Shown one piece after another: positions 3,869 to 63,170 of a stretch of DNA of 64,000 nucleotides. Source of the stretch: Candidatus Omnitrophota bacterium (GTDB taxonomy: Bacteria; Omnitrophota; Gorgyraeia; Duberdicusellales; 4484-171). Position numbers and translations under genes: made by a program. The stretch lies in NCBI GenBank assembly GCA_016935525.1, contig JAFGQU010000023.1, forward strand, positions 64,897-128,896, in the 5' to 3' direction. Position 1 is the first letter of the stretch. Each line of letters opens with the position of its first letter. Below the pieces are notes generated by a model. The model made no database searches. It was not told the origin of the DNA and saw nothing but the letters and a program-made list of their open reading frames with translations.

Positions 3869-6037
3869 TTATCCTTTCGCTATGGCATCGAACTTACAGG
3901 TATCAAAACACAGCCCACAACGGGTACATTGAGCCTGATCGATTACGTGCGCCTCTTTCGGCGCGCCATTGATCGCCGAGACCGGACAGATCCGTTTACA
4001 GGCCCCGCATCCGACGCATTTGTCCGTGATCCGGTAGTCGATCAATGCTTTACATTCACCGGCAGCGCATTTTTTTTCATAAATATGCTCTTCATACTCC
4101 TTGCGGAAATTTCTTATCGTACTCAATACCGGATTCGGCGCCGATTGCCCTAACCCGCACAGTGACGCTTTTTTGATCATTGCCCCTAACCGTTCCAATT
4201 TTTCGATATCGCCTTTTTTGCCTTTACCTTCGGTAATCCTGGTCAGGATCTCAAGCATCCTTTTTGTCCCTTCCCGGCAGGGCACGCATTTACCGCAGGA
4301 TTCGTTCTGGGTGAAATCGAGAAAGAACTTAGCGATACTTACCATACAGGAAGTCTCATCGATCACGATCATCCCGCCGGAACCCATGATCGCGCCGGCT
4401 TTCTGGAGCGATTCATAATCTATTTTGGTATCCAGATCTTCTTCGGTAATACATCCCCCGGATGGGCCTCCGATCTGGACCGCTTTGAATTTCTTCCCAT
4501 CGGACACTCCGCCGCCGATATCAAAGATCAACTGTCGCAGGGTGATCCCCATCGGCACTTCGATCAACCCGGTATTTTTTACCTTACCCGCCAGAGCAAA
4601 CACTTTAGTCCCTTTACTGGTCTCGGTTCCGATCGAACTGAACCACCGGGCCCCGTCAAGTATGATCACCGGGATATTCGCCCAGGTCTCCACGTTATTG
4701 ATCAAGGTCGGTTTACCAAACAACCCTTCGATCGAAGGGTACGGCGGACGGGGCCGCGGCATTCCCCGCGAGCCTTCGATCGAATGAATCAACGCGGTCT
4801 CCTCTCCGCAGACAAACGCCCCGGCTCCCAGCCTGATCTCGATATGAAAACAGAAATCAGAACCTAAAATATTATCACCCAGGAATCCGTGTTCTTTCGC
4901 CTGAGCAAGCGCTTTTTCCAGACGTTTGATCGCAAGCGGATATTCCGCCCGGATATATACGATCCCTTTTTGCGCGCCGACGGCGTATCCGCCGATGATC
5001 ATTCCTTCGAGCACCGTATGCGGATCGCCTTCTATGGCGCTGCGGTCCATGAACGCGCCGGGATCGCCTTCATCGGCATTACAGATCACGTATTTTTCAT
5101 CACCGGGGGCCCGGCGGGTAAATTCCCATTTCGTCCCGGTCGGAAATCCCGCGCCGCCACGGCCGCGTAATCCGGATGTCTTCACTTCATCGATAACTTC
5201 CTGCGGAGTCATCTCGGTCAATACATGGGCAAGCGCCTCATATCCCCGTAAAGAGAGATACCCGTCGATACTTTCCGGGTCGCTTATCCCGCAATTACGC
5301 AGGGCGATACGCATCTGTTTCCCGAAAAAATTCACATCACCGAAAAATCGGTAAAACCGGTTAAACAGGTAATCTTCATCGACGATAAGACGCGAGACCG
5401 GCCTTCCGTTTATAAGATGGTCGTTTACGATAGACGGGATATCCTCTTCTTTCACTTTACCGTACATGGTATATCCGGGATTCACGATCATGATCGGGCC
5501 GTGATCACACATCCCCAGGCATCCCGAGAGCGTGATCGATACTTTATCATCGAGGTTTTTCTCTTTCAATTCCTGTTCAAGTTTTTCGGCCAGTTTCTTG
5601 GAATTTTTATGCATACAACCGGGCCCGTCACATAAAGTGACCGCGTACTCCCTGATTCCTTTCTGCGCTTTTGCCTCCAGGTTATTCAAAGTCCATTCCT
5701 CGATCACCTCGCCTCGTTTGAGATGGCGTTCGATGATATCCCGGGCTTTTTGCGGAGTGATCTTCCCGTACTTGACGGGCAGTTTCCCTTCTTCGACCAC
5801 CTCGACCGTCGGTTCCAGGTTACACCGTCCCACACAGCCTTTCTGACTGAGATACACATCCGCAAGCCCTTCTTCAATCGCTTTCTTAAACACCGCCATC
5901 ACTTCCTGAGAACCCGCGGCTATTTCACAGGTCGCCATCCCCACATATACGCGTTTGGTAGAAAGGTATCCCCCGCCGATAATCTTACCTATTGCTTCGG
6001 CACGTTTCTTTTTGATGATCGATAACGGTGTCACCAT
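3869..6037 (-). CDS. NuoF-like (51 kDa, NADH/FMN-binding) subunit of the hydrogenase, with N-terminal thioredoxin-like 2Fe-2S domains and a C-terminal 2x[4Fe-4S] ferredoxin
   Basis: The core GLRGRGGAGFPTGTKWEF (FMN/NADH site) and CGKCVPCREGT (N3 cluster) match NuoF. The C-terminal CVGCGACKRICP...CTRCGLCFDTC is a ferredoxin domain, giving the HndC/HydB-type architecture. Confidence 0.9.
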   Translation of the reverse strand: MVTPLSIIKKKRAEAIGKIIGGGYLSTKRVYVGMATCEIAAGSQEVMAVFKKAIEEGLADVYLSQKGCVGRCNLEPTVEVVEEGKLPVKYGKITPQKARDIIERHLKRGEVIEEWTLNNLEAKAQKGIREYAVTLCDGPGCMHKNSKKLAEKLEQELKEKNLDDKVSITLSGCLGMCDHGPIMIVNPGYTMYGKVKEEDIPSIVNDHLINGRPVSRLIVDEDYLFNRFYRFFGDVNFFGKQMRIALRNCGISDPESIDGYLSLRGYEALAHVLTEMTPQEVIDEVKTSGLRGRGGAGFPTGTKWEFTRRAPGDEKYVICNADEGDPGAFMDRSAIEGDPHTVLEGMIIGGYAVGAQKGIVYIRAEYPLAIKRLEKALAQAKEHGFLGDNILGSDFCFHIEIRLGAGAFVCGEETALIHSIEGSRGMPRPRPPYPSIEGLFGKPTLINNVETWANIPVIILDGARWFSSIGTETSKGTKVFALAGKVKNTGLIEVPMGITLRQLIFDIGGGVSDGKKFKAVQIGGPSGGCITEEDLDTKIDYESLQKAGAIMGSGGMIVIDETSCMVSIAKFFLDFTQNESCGKCVPCREGTKRMLEILTRITEGKGKKGDIEKLERLGAMIKKASLCGLGQSAPNPVLSTIRNFRKEYEEHIYEKKCAAGECKALIDYRITDKCVGCGACKRICPVSAINGAPKEAHVIDQAQCTRCGLCFDTCKFDAIAKG

Positions 6038-6039
6038 GT

Positions 6040-7887
6040 TTATTCCTCCTTTGCGATAGTAAATAAAAACGAATTCCCTTCTTCTTTCGGCTCAACCCAC
6101 ATTTTCCCGCCGTGTTTTTCGACGATCTCTTTGGAAATAAACAATCCCAGTCCCGTTCCTTTTTCCCGCTGCATCTGGGGACGCAGGATACGGGAAAACC
6201 TTTTGAACAATTTTTCTTTATCGGACTCATCTAACGGCACGCCGTCGTTATACACTTCCACCTGAAAACCGGATGGGTTCTTTTTGCCGCTTATGATCAC
6301 GCGGCCTTTGGGCCGTCCGTATTTGAGCGCATTGTTCACAAGATTGTTCGCGACGATTTTCAGCATATCGCAATCGGCATAGACCTGCTGATTCGGACCG
6401 ATGAGGTTGGAGATCGTCATCTGTTTTTCTTCAGCCTGTTTGGCGAACGTATCACAGGCTTCGCTTATCACATCTTCTTTGAGAAGGATCTCGGTTTTAT
6501 GTATATTCAGTTCTCCTTTTTCGATCCGGCTCAGATTAAGAAAATTCTTTACCAGTGCCGCGAGATAATCGAGACTTCTCGTCACCGAATCGAGCGCTTT
6601 ACGCTGTTTGAAGTTGATCATACCCAGAAATCCGTCACGGACCGCATAGGCGTTCAGGATCGCCCCGGAAAGCACGCCTTTTAATTCGTGAGAAACGAAC
6701 CCGATCAGATCAAGATAACTCTTATTCAGCGCGGCCAATTTCTCGTTAGAGACCTCAAGACTCCTTTCCCGTTCGGCAAGTTTCGCGGCCATATCATTGA
6801 ATGAACCGACCAGGCCGTCGAGTTCCTTTACCGACGCCTCGACTTCAAGCGGCGTATGTTCTTCTCCGTCATGGAGTTTTTTGATCATCCGGTTTAACAC
6901 GGAAATCGGCCGGACAATCGAAGAAGCGAGCAGATAGGAAAGACCGCTGGCAAGCAGCGAAGCGATCAAGATCACTCCCAGAAAGACAAAAAGGATGTTC
7001 CGTCTCAATAAGAAAAACGGCTTTTCTAAAATACCTACATATAAGATACCTATGGTTTTCCCGCGCATATCTTTAATCGGTTCATAGGCGGTGAGATACC
7101 AGTCGGTCACGACAAAAGCCCGGTCAAGCCATTTCTCGCCGCGGCCGACGACTTTCTCGTACACCTCGGCCGAAACCCTGGTTCCGATGGCCCGGTGTCC
7201 TTCGGCATCGAGGACATTCGTCGCAATACGCACGTCGTCAAGGAACACCGTAACCGTTCCGATCGGTTTCCCGTCATACAGTTTGCGTTCGAATACTGCG
7301 TCGTTCACTTTATTAATAAAGGTAAAGTTCCGGTTCAGGATCTTACCGCCGTATATCACTCCGGAGGAGGCCCCGTCCCCGTCAAAAAGCGGGACCGCAC
7401 ATTCAAACGCCATCGCTTCATCAAGCTCCTTACGCGTCGAGGCCTGAGCTTTCGGCGTCGGTTTGACCGGGATACGGATCTTATCTTCATAGAGTTTCCC
7501 GTTCATCTTTTTCAACTCTTCCGAAGCGATAAGTCTTACGGCGGAGACCGGTTTTTTCTGTTCTAACGCGGCTTTTACGATCTCACTGGGAATATCGGCC
7601 AGTCTTTCCCGAGGCACGATATAGAGATAATCGAGGTTTAATTTCTTTTTTACGATCTCAGGCTTATCCTGAGCATCCAGGAAGTCGAACGCGGCGTTCA
7701 TCATCTTCAGTTCCCAATAGAACACGGTATGTACCGTTTTCAGATAACTGCGCACCTGTTCCTGGGTCCGTCCGAGGATGAATTTCTCTACCCCGTAAAA
7801 ACCCAGAAGCGCGATCGTTACCCCTAAAAAAATGATGATCGCGAAAAATGCCCGCCGGATTTTAGCTCTTAAAGTGGCCGTCTTCAT
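6040..7887 (-). CDS. Sensor histidine kinase with two TM helices, a periplasmic Cache-like domain of about 260 aa, then HAMP, HisKA and HATPase domains
   Basis: The H-box HELKGVLSGAI and a C-terminal ATPase with GTGLGLFISKEIVEKHGG. The ORF track starts it at 7908, overlapping rex; the internal start MKTATLRA near 7887 avoids that overlap. Confidence 0.8.
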   Translation of the reverse strand: MKTATLRAKIRRAFFAIIIFLGVTIALLGFYGVEKFILGRTQEQVRSYLKTVHTVFYWELKMMNAAFDFLDAQDKPEIVKKKLNLDYLYIVPRERLADIPSEIVKAALEQKKPVSAVRLIASEELKKMNGKLYEDKIRIPVKPTPKAQASTRKELDEAMAFECAVPLFDGDGASSGVIYGGKILNRNFTFINKVNDAVFERKLYDGKPIGTVTVFLDDVRIATNVLDAEGHRAIGTRVSAEVYEKVVGRGEKWLDRAFVVTDWYLTAYEPIKDMRGKTIGILYVGILEKPFFLLRRNILFVFLGVILIASLLASGLSYLLASSIVRPISVLNRMIKKLHDGEEHTPLEVEASVKELDGLVGSFNDMAAKLAERERSLEVSNEKLAALNKSYLDLIGFVSHELKGVLSGAILNAYAVRDGFLGMINFKQRKALDSVTRSLDYLAALVKNFLNLSRIEKGELNIHKTEILLKEDVISEACDTFAKQAEEKQMTISNLIGPNQQVYADCDMLKIVANNLVNNALKYGRPKGRVIISGKKNPSGFQVEVYNDGVPLDESDKEKLFKRFSRILRPQMQREKGTGLGLFISKEIVEKHGGKMWVEPKEEGNSFLFTIAKEE

Positions 7888-8506
7888 GATTTTCTTTCTC
7901 CAGAGCATTCGCGAAATAAATGATCGTCTCCAGTTCCAACCCTAAATTCACATTATGGACCGCGCATTTTTTATCGGTTTTAAGCCGCAAGGGAGCGAAA
8001 TTAACGATGCCGGTTATCCCTTCAGAGATCATGATATTGAATACCTGTTGAGCGGCAATATCGGGGACGGCGATAACGGCAACCTTTATTGTATGTGTTC
8101 GGATAAAATCACGTAACTCATCCAGAGGAAAAATCGGTATCGGAGCTTTACGGTTTATTTTTACCGGATCGATATCGAACCCGGCGGCGATCTGTATCCC
8201 CAGCTGAGGAAACCCTTTATAATTCATAAGCGCACTACCCAGGTGACCGGCTCCCACCACGATCACTTTAGTGATCTTATCTTTCCCCAGGATCTCGTTC
8301 ACTTTGCTTAAGAGATCCTCAATAAGGTAGCCGCCGCGTTTATTACCGGTAATGCCAAAAAACGAAAAATCTTTTCTCACCTGGACCGCGGTAGCCCCCA
8401 CGGCATCAGCAAGGTTATCGGAAAAAATACGGACCAATCCTAAGGACTTAAACCGATACAAAGCATTTTTGTAACGAGATAAGCGGATAATGGGTTTTTT
8501 GTACAT
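7862..8506 (-). CDS. rex: Redox-sensing transcriptional repressor Rex
   Basis: N-terminal winged helix and a Rossmann GxGxxG (VIVVGAGHLGSAL) for NAD(H) binding. It sits immediately upstream of the hydrogenase genes. Confidence 0.85.
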   Translation of the reverse strand: MYKKPIIRLSRYKNALYRFKSLGLVRIFSDNLADAVGATAVQVRKDFSFFGITGNKRGGYLIEDLLSKVNEILGKDKITKVIVVGAGHLGSALMNYKGFPQLGIQIAAGFDIDPVKINRKAPIPIFPLDELRDFIRTHTIKVAVIAVPDIAAQQVFNIMISEGITGIVNFAPLRLKTDKKCAVHNVNLGLELETIIYFANALEKENHEDGHFKS

Positions 8507-9944: not shown

Positions 9945-10053
9945 TCTCTGGTCTACGGTCGACAGCATATAGTTTCCAACTCAAAAAAAAAGATTATTTC
10001 TATTCGCTGACCGCTAGCCGCTAAACGCTATTTTACAAAGGGCTATCGACGGT

Positions 10054-28739: not shown

Positions 28740-28837
28740 TTTTGACAACAACTCTCGACTCCTAGACTATCCTCTATCCGCTCACCGCTAAACGTCCGCC
28801 TTCGGCGAGACCTCGTCCATAGGCTGGCTACCCGCTA

Positions 28838-33398: not shown

Positions 33399-34664
33399 TT
33401 ATTCTTCGGATTTAAATTTATCTTTTATTATCGCCTCGACCCCCCGAAACAAGTTTTTTATGGTCTTCACTGCGGGGTCATCTTCGATATTTTTGATATC
33501 CGTCTCGCCTTTAAGCACCCGGTCCAGCACGTCACCGACATTCTGCATCGTAAGCTGCTGCAGACGTGCTGTTACCTGCCCCATATCGATAGAAGGATGG
33601 TCGAGCTTTGTCTTAAGCGGCGGCAAATTGAAGTAAGGATTATCATCCTTTTTTTTTAACGCGGCTAGGGCATTTTGGAGTGACTCGACTTTATCCGGCC
33701 TTAACGGATCGTTTTTGAACGCTACATCTTCAAACATCACTTCACCGGAGATAACAAGATCGTTATCGGCGGCTCTTAACTCTACAAGCAAAGAAAGGAA
33801 CGCCTGTTCCAGGTCGAGGTCATAAGCTTTAAACCCGCGCGAGTACTGTTTATCAAAAGTAAGATAATCATAACGGTCTACTTTCACCTGCGCTTCCATA
33901 TTTTTATAAAACCAATCGAGCCAACCGTCGGCTTTTAAGATATCGGGCATTTTTCTTGTTTCGGTCTCCATAGATGCCGAAACATCAAAATAGAACATCA
34001 ACAATTTCGGCAGGTTAAAATCCTTCAGCTTAACGTTGGTATCTTTCAAGGTGAATTCAAGCGGCGGGACAAAAGTATAATCGGTATAGGCAAGAGTTAT
34101 CTGTTTCAGTAATATTTCTCTGATGATAAGGGAAAAAGGGATATCTCTTTTCGGCACAGCCGAAGCGGTTAAGGGGCTTGAAATATCGACTTTACGGTTC
34201 ACGTCGACCTGATCCAATAACGGAGCGTCTTTTGAGGCCGCGATCTTGTAGCGCCAGAACGGTTCAATCGTCACCTCGTCTCTTTGCCGGACGACCTGGA
34301 CTTTAAGGCCGTCTATCTGGAGCCGGCTGAATATAGGGGTAACCGGATCGAACTTTACTCTCTCAAGTCTAAGATATGCGTGAGAAAAAGAGACATCACC
34401 GCAGGAGAAATCGCTGATAACCAGAGTAAACGGAAATGAAAGTTTTATCTGTTTTATTTCGGCCTGGACGCCATAGGTAGTGGATAAATAAGACTCTATA
34501 AAACTCTTCCCCTGACTGTTCACATAGATCATCAAACCCACATAACTGATTACGATCAACACAACGGCAACAACAACAAGCGCGAGAATAAGTTTACCTA
34601 ATTTTTCTATCATTTCATTCCCCTTTTCATTGTACAGTACAAAAAATAAATACCGAATTTTCAA
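33399..34664 (-). CDS. Membrane-anchored protein of unknown function (AsmA-like?)
   Basis: N-terminal TM LILALVVVAVVLIVISYVGLMIYV, then a 380-aa soluble region with no recognized catalytic motif. Confidence 0.35.
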   Translation of the reverse strand: MKIRYLFFVLYNEKGNEMIEKLGKLILALVVVAVVLIVISYVGLMIYVNSQGKSFIESYLSTTYGVQAEIKQIKLSFPFTLVISDFSCGDVSFSHAYLRLERVKFDPVTPIFSRLQIDGLKVQVVRQRDEVTIEPFWRYKIAASKDAPLLDQVDVNRKVDISSPLTASAVPKRDIPFSLIIREILLKQITLAYTDYTFVPPLEFTLKDTNVKLKDFNLPKLLMFYFDVSASMETETRKMPDILKADGWLDWFYKNMEAQVKVDRYDYLTFDKQYSRGFKAYDLDLEQAFLSLLVELRAADNDLVISGEVMFEDVAFKNDPLRPDKVESLQNALAALKKKDDNPYFNLPPLKTKLDHPSIDMGQVTARLQQLTMQNVGDVLDRVLKGETDIKNIEDDPAVKTIKNLFRGVEAIIKDKFKSEE

Positions 34665-34819
34665 CGCGTTTCGCGTGTCGCGTTACGCGTTACGATAAAG
34701 ACAGCGCGCCCGGCATTCTTCGTCATGCGTAACGCGTTCTGCGTAACGCGTGAAGAAAAATAAAAACCAAGTTTTCAACGCGTGTCGCGTTACTCGTTAC
34801 GCGTTACGATAAAAACAAC
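34664..34819. repeat. Two tandem copies of a CGTTACGCG-rich element of about 55-100 bp downstream of tRNA-Arg. The distal copy carries a fragment of the tRNA-Arg 3' end.
   Basis: 34664-34716 is ...cgcgttacgcgttacgataaagacaGCGCGCCCGGCA, against 34770-34830 ...cgcgttactcgttacgcgttacgataaaaacaaCGCGCCCGGCAGGG (the true tRNA end). The shared block gaagaaaaataaaaaccaagttttcaacgcg precedes both. Confidence 0.7.
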
Positions 34820-34893
34820 GCGCCCGGCAGGGATCGAACCTGCCACATTCTGCTTAGAAGGCAGATGCTCTATCCAAATGAGCTACGGGCGCA
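34820..34893 (-). tRNA. tRNA-Arg (TCT)
   Basis: Reverse complement GCGCCCG-TA-GCTC-ATTTGGATA-GAGC-A-TCTGC-CTTCTAA-GCAGA-ATGTG-GCAGG-TTCGATC-CCTGC-CGGGCGC-G. Anticodon TCT. CCA is not encoded. Confidence 0.85.
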
Positions 34894-35074: not shown

Positions 35075-35168
35075 AGCGTCACGCGTTCTGCGTCATGCGT
35101 AACGCGTGAAGAAAAATAAAAACCAAGTTTTCAACGCGGTACGCGTTACTCGTTACGCGTTACGAAAT
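35075..35168. repeat. Third copy of the CGTTACGCG-rich element, immediately downstream of tRNA-Pro
   Basis: cgtcacgcgttctgcgtcatgcgtaacgcgtgaagaaaaataaaaaccaagttttcaacgcggtacgcgttactcgttacgcgttacga is near-identical to 34720-34808. Confidence 0.7.
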
Positions 35169-35246
35169 TGGTCGGGGCGACAGGATTTGAACCTGTGACA
35201 TCTTGGTCCCAAACCAAGCGCTCTAGCCAGGCTGAGCCACGCCCCG
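35169..35246 (-). tRNA. tRNA-Pro (TGG)
   Basis: Reverse complement CGGGGCG-TG-GCTC-AGCCTGGCTA-GAGC-G-CTTGG-TTTGGGA-CCAAG-ATGTC-ACAGG-TTCAAAT-CCTGT-CGCCCCG-A-CCA. Anticodon TGG. CCA is encoded. Confidence 0.85.
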
Positions 35247-35499
35247 AGGCGATAGCGCGTTCGCGCTATCTCGTAACGCGTGAGAAAATAGATTTTCAAT
35301 ACATTCCGTGATAATCCGCGTAGATATCCCCGCCTGCCTGTCAGCCCCGCACAGCGTGGGGCAGGCTGCCTCCCGACCAACGGGAGGGCGGGCAGGTCAC
35401 GCCCCGAAGAATAGCGTATAGCGGTTAGGGTATAGCGTTTAGTAAATAATTCTAATCTCCTCTAATCACTCGCCTCGAAGACTTTCAAAGAAGAGACGC

Positions 35500-35580
35500 C
35501 CTCGCATCGCTGTCACCCCTGAAGATTCTCACAAAAGAAATTTCTTCACGTGTGACTATGTGACCTTGTGTCGTGTGACC
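35500..35580. repeat. GTCACA-family element with right (TGTGAC) arm only
   Basis: cacgTGTGACtaTGTGACctTGTGTCgTGTGACc. Confidence 0.6.
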
Positions 35581-35603
35581 TTTATCATCCGCTTCTATAT
35601 ATA

Positions 35604-36214: not shown

Positions 36215-36330
36215 CATGTCACACGTTGCACGTCACACGACACACGTATCTTCTTTGCGTATGACTCTGTGACCATGTGACTTTGTGACTCGCCGAAGGC
36301 AGATGTGTGACTTTGTGACCATGTGACTTT
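36215..36330. repeat. GTCACA-family composite element (left GTCACA array, right array of 6 TGTGAC units)
   Basis: atGTCACAcgttgcacGTCACAcgacacacg ... ctcTGTGACcaTGTGACttTGTGACtcgccgaaggcagatgTGTGACttTGTGACcaTGTGAC. Confidence 0.7.
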
Positions 36331-37078: not shown

Positions 37079-37180
37079 GTCACACGCTTGTCTACCGACA
37101 AGCTAGTCACAAGGTTACATCGTCACATGTCAAAATATCTCTTACTACGTGTGACGTGTGTCGTGTGACTATGTGACGTT
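37079..37180. repeat. GTCACA-family composite element
   Basis: aGTCACAcg...taGTCACAag...cGTCACAtg ... cgTGTGACgTGTGTCgTGTGACtaTGTGACg. Confidence 0.7.
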
Positions 37181-37716: not shown

Positions 37717-37720
37717 ATTC

Positions 37721-37858
37721 TATTCCTTATATAGAAATACAGTTGAAATACGATGGAAATATGTCCCTGAAGAGACGAAATACATTGTAAAAACAATTGC
37801 ATTTCATGAGCGATAGCGAGTATATTTCGCGAAGCATATTTCTATATATTTCAAAAAT
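37721..37858. repeat. GAAATA-family composite element (GAAATA direct repeats, a central palindrome, TATTTC inverted repeats) lying between the fumarase beta and alpha genes
   Basis: taGAAATAcagttGAAATAcgatgGAAATAtg...GAAATAcattgtaaaaacaattgcatttc...gagcgatagcgagTATATTTCgcgaagcaTATTTCtaTATATTTCaaa. It shares the blocks gagcgatagcgagtatatttc and atatatttcaaa with 56977-57112. Confidence 0.7.
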
Positions 37859-45141: not shown

Positions 45142-45217
45142 TCTTTTAATAGTCGTTCGTCGTCAGTCGATAGTATTTAGTCGAAAAAAGAAACTCAAAA
45201 TTCTAAAACTGTTTGGG

Positions 45218-45312
45218 ATTTTGGTAATTGGGATTTTCCCGATCCTTAGCATCTTTATTTAGCGGGATCCCGCCAGAGACGGGAATTTAGGATTTCGTGC
45301 TTCGGATTTATT
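45218..45312. repeat. AATCC / AAGCACGAAAT-family element immediately downstream of the malK-like gene
   Basis: gGGATTttggtaattGGGATTttccc...gggaatTTAGGATTTCGTGCTTCGGATTtat. Confidence 0.65.
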
Positions 45313-45317
45313 TTCAA

Positions 45318-48787: not shown

Positions 48788-48817
48788 CTCACTCGCCTCC
48801 TTTATCTTTTATTGTCG

Positions 48818-48926
48818 GCGAAAATCCGAAATCCGAATATCGAAATCCTAAACGGAATTCGTTTGAGAAATTAGGATTTTGGTCATTCGAATTTGTTTCG
48901 AAATTCGAATTTCGTGCTTCGTTTTT
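48818..48926. repeat. AATCC / AAGCACGAAAT-family element between the dnaJ 3' end and the FmdB-family zinc-ribbon gene
   Basis: gAAAATCCGAAATCCGAAtatcgAAATCCTAAacggaattcgtttgagaaattaggattttggtcattcgaatttgtttcgaaattcgAATTTCGTGCTTCG. Confidence 0.65.
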
Positions 48927-48929
48927 TCT

Positions 48930-50054: not shown

Positions 50055-50145
50055 CGCACGTCACAAAGTCACAAGGTCACATAGTCACAGGTTGAAGAGA
50101 GATTTTTCTCCCCACGTGTGACGTGTGACATGTGTCGTGTGACCT
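50055..50145. repeat. GTCACA-family composite element between dnaK and dnaJ (four GTCACANN units facing four TGTGAC units)
   Basis: GTCACAaaGTCACAagGTCACAtaGTCACAgg-N21-cacgTGTGACgTGTGACaTGTGTCgTGTGACc. The left arm is identical to 52222-52253. Confidence 0.75.
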
Positions 50146-52053: not shown

Positions 52054-52221
52054 ACCTCCTCAATGAGCGCACAATTTTTCAAGCGTACTCACGCGATGAA
52101 AAATTGCATGCGCGAATTGACTCCGACGAGCTCCGCGAGATTTTACCTGTAAAATCGAGCGGTATACTGGGCGAGTCGGAGCAAATACCCTATCAATAAA
52201 CTACTTCCTTCAAATCTTCGG

Positions 52222-52330
52222 GTCACAAAGTCACAAGGTCACATAGTCACAGGTATAGAAAATTTTATTCGTGTGACGTGCTTGCCCCGTTGTCGCCAGA
52301 CTCACGGGTGTGACCTGTGTCGTGTGACTC
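52222..52330. repeat. GTCACA-family composite element at the grpE 3' end. Its right arm is interrupted by 25 nt and overlaps the last roughly 20 grpE codons.
   Basis: GTCACAaaGTCACAagGTCACAtaGTCACAgg...cgTGTGACgtg[cttgccccgttgtcgccagactcac]gggTGTGACcTGTGTCgTGTGACtc. Confidence 0.75.
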
Positions 52331-52903
52331 ATTTTTCTTCACACTCACAATCACTTTCGCGGTCCTTAGCACTTTCTCGTTTAAAAAATACCCTTTTTGT
52401 ACTTCTTCAAGGACCATATGCTCTTCACCCTCGTCGATTTCTTTCTGCCCGACGATCTCATGGCAATGAGGGTCGAATTTTTTACCTTTAGTCACGATGA
52501 GTTCAAGCCCGCATTTCTGCAGGATCCCGAAAAACCGGTTGAACGATATCTCGATACCTTTCAGCATCTGTTCGCCGGCATTATGTTCTTTACCGATACG
52601 CAACGCGTGTTCCAAATCATCCAGCACGACGATAAGGTCCAGGATCAACTGATAATTGGCAAACCGGAACATCTCTCCTTTTTCCCGGTCCCACCGTTTA
52701 CGGCTATTCTCAAAATCGGCATGTAACCGCAGATATTTATTCCACAATTCGTTATATTCCGACGCTTTTTTCTGCAATTCGTCTTCAAAGAACTTCCCGG
52801 CCTCTTTACCGCCGCACTCGTTTTGGCAGGCCTCATCGTTATGAGCGCAAGATGATTCCTGCTGTTTTTCCTGGTCAGGGTTATGCTCTTTAGGTAGTTT
52901 CAT
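52265..52903 (-). CDS. grpE: Nucleotide exchange factor GrpE, with a C-terminal tail (HDTGHTRESGDNGASTSHE) that appears to be encoded by the GTCACA repeat
   Basis: GrpE coiled-coil plus beta-domain core (…LRTAKVIVSVKK). The last 60 nt of the ORF coincide with the TGTGAC arm. Confidence 0.85.
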   Translation of the reverse strand: MKLPKEHNPDQEKQQESSCAHNDEACQNECGGKEAGKFFEDELQKKASEYNELWNKYLRLHADFENSRKRWDREKGEMFRFANYQLILDLIVVLDDLEHALRIGKEHNAGEQMLKGIEISFNRFFGILQKCGLELIVTKGKKFDPHCHEIVGQKEIDEGEEHMVLEEVQKGYFLNEKVLRTAKVIVSVKKNESHDTGHTRESGDNGASTSHE

Positions 52904-53691: not shown

Positions 53692-53718
53692 TTAGCACTC
53701 TATCAATCAGAGTGCCAG
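53692..53718 (-). promoter_or_regulatory. CIRCE operator (HrcA binding site) for the hrcA-grpE-dnaK-dnaJ operon
   Basis: The minus strand reads CTGGCACTC-tgattgata-GAGTGCTAA, against the consensus TTAGCACTC-N9-GAGTGCTAA. Confidence 0.8.
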
Positions 53719-53720
53719 GT

Positions 53721-53749
53721 ATAATAACACACCGCATTCTATGAGTCAA
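53721..53749 (-). promoter_or_regulatory. Sigma-A type promoter (TTGACT-17-TATTAT) immediately upstream of CIRCE
   Basis: The minus strand reads TTGACTcatagaatgcggtgtgtTATTATacCTGGCACTC... Confidence 0.6.
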
Positions 53750-54131: not shown

Positions 54132-54236
54132 ATTCCTCCTTCCTGCCGGCAAAGGCCCGGTAGACATCTCGCCATTGTTAAAACTGATCGAATGGTATTA
54201 TCACACAGCTTGAAAGTTTATTCAAGAACTACCTGT

Positions 54237-54372
54237 GAAAATCCAAAGCACGAAATCCTAAATCCTAAACAAATTCCAAATCCTAATGTTCAAAACAGAT
54301 TCCGTTTGAGAATTTAGGATTTTCTTCATTTGTTTCGAGTTTCGGAATTCGGATTTAGAATTTAAACCGCGT
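54237..54372. repeat. AATCC / AAGCACGAAAT-family element immediately downstream of clpB
   Basis: aAAATCCaAAGCACGAAATCCTAAATCCTAAacaaattccAAATCCTAAtgttcaaaacagattccgtttgagaatttaggattttcttcatttgtttcgagtttcggaattcggatttagaa. It shares cgtttgagaaNttaggatttt with 48818-48926. Confidence 0.65.
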
Positions 54373-54379
54373 CCGAATG

Positions 54380-56956: not shown

Positions 56957-56976
56957 ACTTTGATTACTCCTATTAT

Positions 56977-57112
56977 TTAGAAATACATAGAAATAAGAAG
57001 AAATTCACCGAAGAATTTCATAGAAATATGGTGGAAATACAATTGTATTTCGCGTGAGCATATTTCGCGAGCGATAGCGAGTATATTTCCATATATTTCA
57101 AATCACGTTTGT
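56977..57112. repeat. GAAATA-family composite element between clpB and the rhomboid gene
   Basis: aGAAATAcataGAAATAagaaGAAATtcaccgaaGAATTTCataGAAATAtggtgGAAATACAATTGTATTTCgcgtgagcaTATTTCgcgagcgatagcgagTATATTTCcaTATATTTCaaa. Confidence 0.7.
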
Positions 57113-57134
57113 TTATTTCATCTCTCAATATACA

Positions 57135-57800: not shown

Positions 57801-57902
57801 TTTCCGTCGTTAGTCGATCGTCGTTGGTCGTTCGTATAAGGATATCGGGACAGGGTTACGGGTACCGAGAATACCCGAAACCCTGCACCCTGTACCCGAA
57901 CA

Positions 57903-58447: not shown

Positions 58448-58474
58448 TTAGCACTCATAACAATAGACTGCCAA
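58448..58474 (-). promoter_or_regulatory. Degenerate CIRCE-like inverted repeat upstream of hsp20
   Basis: TTAGCACTC-ataacaata-GACTGCCAA. The left half is perfect; the right half matches 6 of 9. Confidence 0.4.
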
Positions 58475-63040: not shown

Positions 63041-63084
63041 GCGCGGGATGAGAGTCACACAGTCACATGGTCACATGTCACACG
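63041..63084. repeat. GTCACA-family half element (left arm only)
   Basis: GTCACAcaGTCACAtgGTCACAtGTCACAcg. Confidence 0.6.
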
Positions 63085-63170
63085 TAAAGAAAAAACTGTG
63101 GTTAAGCTCTCTGAAAATAGATCTTTTGCGTTATACTACGGACCACAGACTATGGACTACAGGCCATCGA

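Follow-up and report, generated by a model that had tools for sequence, protein, structure and literature searches.

The 64,000-nt window analysed here, from the genome of a Candidatus Omnitrophota bacterium, carries on its minus strand two groups of genes whose gaps hold a family of short intergenic repeats built on the hexamer GTCACA. Each element is 40-110 bp in size and is composed of an array of G(T/A)CACA units followed by an inverted TGTGAC array. In one group the order is fumA, fumB, element, rph, element, rdgB, a decayed element and tRNAs. In the other, hflX, a single arm, an extracytoplasmic function (ECF) sigma factor gene and its anti-sigma gene come first, and further on lie hsp20, clpB, hpf, hrcA, grpE, an element, dnaK, a second element and dnaJ. 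RdgB/Ham1, RNase PH, fumarase beta, GrpE and DnaJ were identified by Pfam and DnaK by homology, so that the gene names given in a first-pass annotation of the same DNA are right.

GTCACA occurs 46 times in the window when both strands are counted, against 12.3 +/- 3.3 times (maximum 22) in dinucleotide-preserving shuffles, none of which, out of 100, reached 46. Six clusters hold 35 of the 46 copies, every cluster lying in a gap between minus-strand genes (Table 1). The excess is confined to these clusters, and the roughly 10 hexamers left over are the number expected by chance. Although 91% of the window is open reading frame (ORF), 32 of the 46 hexamers are found in the remainder, and another three fall inside the non-conserved C-terminal tail of the grpE ORF. 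An nhmmer profile built from six copies matched the six known sites and nothing else in the window at the cut-off of E<1e-3. The 32-nt arm GTCACAAAGTCACAAGGTCACATAGTCACAGG has exactly two exact occurrences in the window, at 50060 and 52222, as had been noticed before. The first-pass annotation was therefore correct in describing a real repeat family at these sites. Its further statement, that all copies lie between co-transcribed minus-strand genes, holds for the gaps themselves, while co-transcription is suggested by the gene order and by the lack of predicted promoters or sense terminators.

Table 1. Coordinates of the GTCACA elements and of other features of the window (MFE, predicted minimum free energy)
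Feature	Position	Strand	Setting	GTCACA cluster	MFE (kcal/mol)	z
Full element, dnaK-dnaJ gap	50060-50143	minus	between dnaK stop 50149 and dnaJ start 50048	50060-50143	-39.5	-4.2
Full element, grpE-dnaK gap	52222-52328	minus		52222-52328	-40.0	-4.0
Full element, rph-rdgB gap	36218-36327	minus	between rph stop 36333 and rdgB start 36206	36218-36327	-33.4	-1.1
Full element, fumarase beta-rph gap	37079-37177	minus	fumarase beta stop 37183	37079-37177	-40.4	-4.2
Decayed element	35505-35583	minus	3' of rdgB (stop 35604)	35551-35579	-31.4 (region)	-3.1
Single arm	63053-63094	minus	downstream of hflX, ~60 nt upstream of ECF sigma factor gene (start 62990)	63054-63082		-0.2
AAATCC/GGATTT inverted arrays	45142-45317, 48788-48929, 54168-54379		ends cgaagcacgaaat...atttcgtgcttcgg			
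GAAATAT/ATATTTC inverted arrays	37717-37850, 56957-57134					
AACGAC and TAGCGGNN (TAGCGG) arrays	57801-57902; 9945-10053, 28740-28837					
ACGCGTT x4.4 (three times) and ATAGCGT x4.6 heptamer arrays	34664-34694, 34778-34808, 35134-35164, 35411-35442		flank the two tRNA genes			
tRNA genes	34819-34892, 35172-35246	minus				
GC-rich ~70-nt palindrome	35329-35397					
137-nt insertion	52065-52201		between grpE-dnaK element and dnaK ribosome-binding site			
CIRCE and promoter of hrcA	53692-53717 and 53721-53749	minus	upstream of hrcA			
CIRCE-like palindrome	58448-58474	minus	upstream of hsp20			

Anatomy and predicted folding of the elements

The arm unit is the hexamer core G(T/A)CACA with one or two spacer bases, repeated in a short tandem run. 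In the window and 25 related loci (designated by L numbers below), neighbouring G(T/A)CACA hexamers are 7 nt (41 cases) or 8 nt (115 cases) apart and at no other distance up to 12, and Tandem Repeats Finder returns a period of 7 or 8 with 3-4.6 copies at every GTCACA site. Most copies have one arm of heptamers, G(T/A)CACAC, and the other of octamers, TGTGACYN. The spacers are mostly AG or AA in the octamers and mostly C in the heptamers; the hexamer core is fixed while the spacers differ, the units being imperfect copies. Several units read GACACA/TGTGTC instead of GTCACA. Thus, of the 8-bp direct repeats first described for both arms, the arrays and their inversion are real, but the uniform period and the uniform unit are not.

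In the sense RNA, the dnaK-flanking and fumB-rph copies and one copy in L021 begin with four G(U/A)CACAC heptamers and end with four UGUGACYN octamers; the loop between them, of 17-60 nt, is often self-pairing. The heptamer/octamer order is reversed in the rph-rdgB copy relative to the dnaK copies; there is therefore no fixed orientation relative to transcription. The composite order is invariable: in the Omnitrophota-like loci the GTCACA array comes first and the TGTGAC array second, by at least 16 cases to 0, which is in keeping with copying from one ancestor. The upstream stop codon precedes the elements by 0-12 nt.

The dnaK-dnaJ copy (nhmmer E=6e-23) has a first arm of heptamers, GUCACAC GACACAU GUCACAC GUCACAC, then a 27-nt self-pairing loop and a second arm of four octamers, UGUGACUA UGUGACCU UGUGACUU UGUGAC. 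The octamer arm of the grpE-dnaK copy is identical to the latter, and its heptamer arm contains a 30-nt self-folding insertion. The last ~20 codons of the grpE ORF (52265-52903, stop 52265) are read through an arm of this element: the Pfam GrpE domain stops at residue 187 of 212, and the C-terminal tails differ among three orthologs, ending in SHDTGHTRESGDNGASTSHE in the window (52265-52340), in SHDT in L090 (~4351-4372) and in TSHDTGHTTHE in L178 (~940-985). In the rph-rdgB copy the octamer array of three units is doubled (3+3) and the heptamer arm is short; in the fumB-rph copy a small extra palindrome, cttgtctaccgacaag, breaks one arm. Two sites had been taken for half elements. The one downstream of hflX is indeed a single arm, with four UGUGAC units in the sense RNA that match the octamer-arm half of the profile (E=7.5e-6). 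The one 3' of rdgB is not: besides its intact GUCACA-type arm (35551-35579) it has a degenerate partner arm, UUGUGAG...GGUGAC, and the profile matches it at 35529-35583.

The RNA is predicted to fold into long stems, about 25-30 bp in length and interrupted every 6 bp. Three of the four full copies fold at z -4.0 to -4.2 and their orthologs at z -2.7 to -5.1, so that the hairpin potential noted in the first pass is confirmed for all full copies except that at 36218; the single arm at 63054 likewise has no fold beyond that of shuffles. Where an arm carries an insertion, of 30 nt in the window or of 20 nt in L090 and L178, the inserted piece forms a side branch and the main stem is preserved. 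A search of the whole window against Rfam 15 at gathering threshold gave three tRNAs only, and permissive scans of both element regions gave chance-level matches (E>3). Literature searches on the GTCACA hexamer itself returned nothing relevant. The heptamer GUCACAC is also found in the decoding region of 16S rRNA, which we take to be a chance 7-mer coincidence.

Copies in related genomes and arrays of other words

A survey of single genomes, each representing a species, for runs of three GTCACA units at a spacing of 8 returned at least 115 loci. Among the matches listed, Omnitrophota, Bacteroidales and metagenome-assembled genomes (MAGs) labelled Planctomycetes were frequent, and there were many plain microsatellites of unrelated taxa. 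RNase PH of the window is 100% identical to a protein of a Candidatus Omnitrophica MAG. The locus L090 is syntenic with the window from 47.8 to 54.3 kb at ~76% DNA identity, and its contig also holds the rph region (L175). RNase PH of L176 is 83% identical to that of the window and GrpE of L178 is 79% identical; L177, L179, L180, L181 and L182 are more distant Omnitrophota (RNase PH 63-68% identical). A metagenome scan with GrpE led to one relative only.

The two copies that bracket dnaK are well preserved. In aligned columns, the dnaK-dnaJ element is 90.9% identical to its ortholog in L090, and the grpE-dnaK element is 93.5 and 94.3% identical to those in L090 and L178, respectively, as compared with 47, 57 and 50% identity at the fourfold-degenerate sites of DnaJ, DnaK and HrcA. 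These orthologs differ mainly by indels: the window has its 30-nt insertion, L090 and L178 have a 20-nt palindrome, and the grpE-dnaK element of L178 is one unit short, with 3 instead of 4. The rph-flanking sites vary much more. Between fumB and rph, the 99-bp GTCACA element of the window is replaced by an unrelated AT-rich hairpin in L175, by a 22-nt gap in L176 and by gaps of 13-27 nt in L177, L179 and L181. The rph-rdgB gap holds 6+2 units in the window, a shorter element of 53 bp (3+1 units) in L175 and another repeat in L176; in the distant relatives it measures 0-4 nt or the genes overlap. The rph copies are therefore insertions or expansions that arose within a single sub-lineage, and 20 kb each of L177, L179 and L181 lack such arrays altogether. 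Two regimes are thus observed, the dnaK-flanking copies being kept far above the neutral level and the rph-flanking copies turning over quickly. Absence from relatives had been named in advance as a ground for doubting the family: this applies to the rph-flanking copies, which are absent, shorter or replaced, but not to the conserved dnaK-flanking ones.

The same hexamer core is found in composite elements of MAGs with 69% and 77% GC (L009, L038, L015). The family is most likely lineage-restricted, to a subset of Omnitrophota and to MAGs resembling their relatives. Some of the labels of the latter look doubtful: the CAZABB01 loci (L090, L175 and L021, labelled Planctomycetia) and the JACQXZ01 loci (L097 and L100, labelled Actinomycetota) are syntenic with this Omnitrophota window, the CAZABB01 RNase PH is 85% identical, and JACQXZ01 has the same rdgB-rph neighbourhood.

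Other features were noted around dnaK. A 20-nt miniature, GCCTGCCTGCCGGCAGGTAG, occupies the same unit junction of the GTCACA arm in the dnaK-dnaJ copy of L090 (~2289-2310) and in the grpE-dnaK copy of L178 (~1003-1023), and is either a tiny mobile palindrome or the product of gene conversion between the two dnaK-flanking copies. The 137-nt insertion upstream of dnaK is absent from L090 and L178, occurs once among the sequences compared and matches nothing in Rfam. An imperfectly duplicated Shine-Dalgarno region (ATTTGAAGGAAGTA / ATTGAGGAGGTA) flanks it, and an inverted repeat, CTCCGAC...GTCGGAG, lies within it. In L025, a distant Omnitrophota, the grpE-dnaK gap of 480 nt carries a duplicated module with arrays at 7650-7690 and 7896-7935. 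Each module ends in a direct array, (YNGTTACT)x4, without inverted partner, and ~20 nt separate the second array from the Shine-Dalgarno sequence of dnaK downstream.

More than 10 further gaps of the window contain inverted arrays of the same architecture, with periods of 7-8 nt, made of other words (Table 1). These counterparts of the family, at many gaps of the same window, were overlooked in the first-pass annotation, which did not recognise the kind. Five of the non-GTCACA regions were folded, three AAATCC and two GAAATAT, and gave long imperfect hairpins at z -2.0 to -5.2. Close relatives hold different words at some orthologous sites: in the gap between dnaJ and a Zn-ribbon gene, an AAATCC array in the window stands against a CGCAGAT-type hairpin in L090. 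As the words are unrelated and the arms always complementary, complementarity is the common property and the word is free; the shared complementarity may reflect a hairpin function or an inverted-duplication origin.

Arrays of short words are also seen in other settings. In the window, ACGCGTT and ATAGCGT heptamer arrays flank two minus-strand tRNA genes, and a CGCTAYNC array precedes a tRNA in L175 too. The GC-rich palindrome of the window is 90% identical to one at 1855-1924 of L175, at a non-orthologous site and there inside an AAATCC element. In the Omnitrophota MAG L010 (180-2060 and 7300-7640), three paralogous AAA_14/DUF4143 genes are separated by 136-nt modules with GTCACA, GTCGCA and TGTGAC arrays, and one such gene is bracketed by inverted arrays 1.6 kb apart. 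The viral contigs L127/L160 (12300-12640), L128 (7913-8226) and L144 (5835-6071) carry dense TGTGAC/GTCACA clusters of mixed orientation and irregular spacing, which look like iterons or operators and have a layout unrelated to that of the Omnitrophota elements. In the plasmid and phage collections, the sole match came from plasmid pRF1 of Leptolyngbya (L183, NC_004964.1 4145-4174), where an unannotated stretch has (GTCACAAA)x4 and, after it, further octamer arrays, GATTGTTT.

Function of the elements

We favour, and give an even chance to, the explanation that the elements are lineage-restricted dispersed palindromic repeats acting as intercistronic mRNA stem-loops, with a role in stability, processing or translational coupling. 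At the elements, prediction yields neither a promoter nor a sense terminator, and the hrcA-grpE-dnaK-dnaJ operon has its own promoter and CIRCE upstream of hrcA. We infer that the elements, in their operon-internal spacers, are transcribed with the operon and fold into a stem-loop. Such a stem-loop might shield the mRNA upstream of it from 3'-exonucleases, serve as a processing site for an endonuclease, or bring the upstream stop codon next to the downstream start; protection, processing or stop-start proximity would in turn uncouple or tune neighbouring cistrons, in this case DnaK relative to GrpE and DnaJ. New copies and changes in unit number would arise via copying, gene conversion and slippage. 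Most copies would be quickly gained and lost, being nearly neutral at most sites, and the dnaK-bracketing pair would be retained by selection.

Several results speak against this explanation. RNAalifold on six copies gives 18 pairs, none with a compensatory change, and the one substitution that recurs, GTCACA to GACACA in the heptamer arm, goes without compensation. The octamer-arm spacers are conserved though unpaired, which weighs against structure alone because a purely structural constraint does not predict it. The rph-rdgB copy folds no better than shuffles, and single-arm arrays occur, at 63054 in the window and upstream of dnaK in L025. As to the spread of the elements, a Pfam scan of ~50 window proteins and 10 locus proteins revealed no transposase, no RAYT and no mobilising gene, and the flanks of nine copies have an A-rich 5' side in common but no target-site duplication. 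Homogenisation of the repeated units could be an alternative cause of the missing compensation, the conserved spacers and the single-arm arrays.

Some of these features would be expected if the arrays were multi-site platforms for a sequence-specific protein reading GTCACA/UGUGAC on DNA or RNA, the inverted arrangement and the hairpin potential being secondary, a possibility that we consider unlikely but keep in view. In its favour, the spacers vary around a conserved hexamer core, neighbouring units are spaced by 7 or 8 nt without exception, compensatory changes are missing, the unpaired spacers are conserved at dnaK, and the core recurs in the GC-rich MAGs mentioned above, even though its presence in high-GC genomes is partly an effect of searching for GTCACA. 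Moreover, single-arm arrays are situated just upstream of start codons (window 63054; L021, L054, L025), the position for which a post-transcriptional regulator has been proposed in the case of the TAACTGA repeats (PMC4679880). The arrays of other words argue the other way: equivalent gaps hold the same architecture in unrelated words, and each word would need its own factor. At one and the same site, elements are gained, lost or exchanged between close relatives, the flanking genes have no functional theme, the arrays are not at promoters, and no candidate binding-protein gene is linked among the window and locus proteins scanned. The arms also differ in period (7 against 8), so that there is no constant helical phasing. 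A wider version, in which GTCACA/UGUGAC and the other word arrays are the sites of dedicated, sequence-specific binding proteins and form a repeat-based post-transcriptional or chromosome-organising network in Omnitrophota and in some lineages near them, seems to us less probable again. If it were true, the factor would keep the hexamer identity across genomes of 40-77% GC, and the hairpin would only mask or present the sites.

The elements may alternatively have no function, being by-products of slippage or template switching, or selfish DNA, tolerated where harmless, and thus the long simple-sequence repeats of Omnitrophota. We regard this as doubtful for the family as a whole. It fits the rph copies but not the dnaK copies. 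The differing unit numbers of orthologs (6+2 against 3+1 at rph-rdgB, 4 against 3 at grpE-dnaK in L178), the coexistence of several flavours, the patchy distribution among Omnitrophota, with none in 20 kb each of three relatives, and the ancestral gaps of 0-27 nt are consistent with it, as is the finding that among long simple-sequence repeats heptanucleotides form the most frequent class, which is ascribed to slippage (Mrazek 2007, as summarised in PMC4679880). On the other hand, the dnaK-flanking copies are 91-94% identical against ~50% at neutral sites, a fixed core with variable spacers is not the product of pure slippage, the arm order is fixed, and the indels spare the main stem.

That the elements are transcription terminators or attenuators within operons, or terminators of antisense transcription, is very unlikely. 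In the window copies a T-run comes after the stable hairpin on the plus (antisense) strand, and a terminator scan picks one of them (50115-50141, plus). However, this T-run is not kept in the dnaK-dnaJ copy of L090 or in the L175 ortholog, and on the sense strand no copy is followed by a U-tract or a predicted terminator, which gives no support to termination as the mode of the intra-operon attenuation suggested at first. An operator role, for a dimeric factor of the CRP/FNR type or for a heat-shock regulator, has a negligible likelihood: TGTGA and TCACA are CRP half-sites and two copies flank dnaK, but TGTGA-N6-TCACA is missing from all elements even with one mismatch allowed (the 3 one-mismatch matches of the window all lie elsewhere), the arms run TCACA...TGTGA, always as GTCACA...TGTGAC and in the reverse order of a CRP site, so that the resemblance pointed out in the first pass does not hold, and the heat-shock genes here have CIRCE operators and hrcA, to which the GTCACA arrays are unrelated in sequence.

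A heat-shock operator, and with it a chaperone regulon, had also been suggested by arrays at clpB (L026) and dnaK (L089, L025), and was rejected: the chaperone genes have CIRCE and HrcA, copies also adjoin rph, rdgB, fumarase, uvrA, maf and aspartate dehydrogenase genes, and arrays at other loci flank those of UvrA, aspartate dehydrogenase, Maf, nitroreductase and GDP-mannose dehydratase. The CIRCE consensus, TTAGCACTC-N9-GAGTGCTAA, is not matched by the GTCACA arrays; it is represented in the window by TGGCACTC-N9-GAGTGCTAA, just downstream of the TTGACT-17-TATTAT promoter of hrcA, and by a second CIRCE-like palindrome upstream of hsp20. Promoter matches inside the arrays do not exceed 9 of 12, at background rate. 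Transposon ends or an autonomous element were discarded, with no transposase or RAYT in the window or at the arrays and with the AAA_14/DUF4143 genes of L010 not recurring at other array loci. So was a replacement of the Shine-Dalgarno sequence: genes abutting the UGUGAC arm are without one, but so are about two-thirds of the window genes by the same crude test, which makes this lack uninformative.

The function of short tandem heptamer intergenic repeats, such as the short tandemly repeated repetitive (STRR) sequences and the TAACTGA repeats, is described as unknown (PMC2670836, PMC4679880), and the Omnitrophota family adds a comparative case. The contrast between the dnaK copies (91-94% identical, with neutral sites saturated) and the turnover at rph singles out the dnaK-bracketing pair as functional candidates. 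For the annotation of uncultured genomes, it matters that the elements lengthen ORFs, as in the GrpE tail, and hold nested small palindromes. They may also break short-read assemblies.

Comparison with known repeat systems

Miniature inverted-repeat transposable elements (MITEs) such as the Neisseria Correia elements are ~100-bp, non-coding, hairpin-forming units with inverted ends that lie between genes and are co-transcribed with them. The GTCACA elements, with probable co-transcription, resemble them in these traits and, as they do REPs or REPINs, in genomic behaviour. They differ in having no target-site duplication and in ends that are short-repeat arrays rather than a unique terminal inverted repeat; in the loci examined, no insertion sequence with the same ends was found and no transposase adjoins any array. 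Ribbon-helix-helix proteins (omega of pSM19035, MetJ, ParG) bind contiguous 7-8 bp repeats, direct and inverted, as the GTCACA arrays are. Their target arrays overlap promoters or centromere sites and have the gene of the small DNA-binding protein close by, but the GTCACA arrays lie between cistrons without predicted promoter, and the window has no ribbon-helix-helix gene.

The TAACTGA heptamer repeats of marine Beggiatoaceae, Cyanobacteria and Bacteroidetes share with the GTCACA arrays the use of one short word, repeated 2-6 times in intergenic regions, often just before a start codon, in scattered taxa and with no common downstream function. They are nearly all direct (169 direct sets against one indirect; MacGregor 2015, PMC4679880), whereas the GTCACA arrays are paired with an inverted copy and have variable spacers. 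A post-transcriptional regulator was proposed by MacGregor for those repeats that lie just upstream of start codons (PMC4679880). Heptamer repeats of Nostoc near promoters or start codons have been reported to affect expression, and a binding partner was suggested (bioRxiv 10.1101/2022.06.06.494920).

Repetitive extragenic palindromic (REP) sequences mostly follow ORFs in gaps between unidirectional genes, where a role as RNA elements is attributed to them (PMC3733652), and REP doublets form hairpins and behave as mobile units (PMC3116915). The GTCACA elements share with REPs, with bacterial interspersed mosaic elements (BIMEs) and with REPINs the high copy number, the extragenic location, mainly 3' of ORFs and between unidirectional genes, the inverted doublets, 20-100 bp apart, that form a larger hairpin in single-stranded DNA or mRNA, the existence of several families per genome and the turnover between relatives (PMC3733652, PMC3116915). 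Among the options raised in the first-pass annotation, a REP/BIME-like mRNA structural element is accordingly the best supported. The unit, however, is of another kind: that of a REP is an imperfect palindrome of 20-40 bp, with an 8-9 bp stem and a 4-5 nt loop, and the GTCACA arm is a direct array without internal stem-loop. REPs carry an unpaired GTAG or CGTC tag at one end; GTAG is absent here, and CGTC occurs only within the heptamer CGTCACA, inside the arm and not at its end. REPs are linked to RAYT, a Y1 transposase, and none was present among the scanned window and locus proteins.

The closest likeness in construction is to the cyanobacterial STRR sequences, whose 7-bp repeats form a hairpin between hupS and hupL, where transcript stability or translational coupling has been proposed with function unproven (PMC2670836). 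Both have head-to-tail tandem units of ~7 nt at dispersed, non-coding intergenic sites, several unit families per genome, and potential hairpins between genes that are (STRRs) or probably are (GTCACA) co-transcribed. The GTCACA family differs in belonging to Omnitrophota and not to Cyanobacteria, in its GTCACA core, in its mixed heptamer/octamer arms and in its fixed hexamer with variable spacers; STRRs are mostly described as direct arrays, and nearly all GTCACA copies are inverted pairs. The classic STRR1-3 unit sequences are not known to match GTCACA. With a construction like that of STRRs and a behaviour like that of REPs, the GTCACA family is best filed as an Omnitrophota member of the known short-unit tandem/inverted intergenic repeats.

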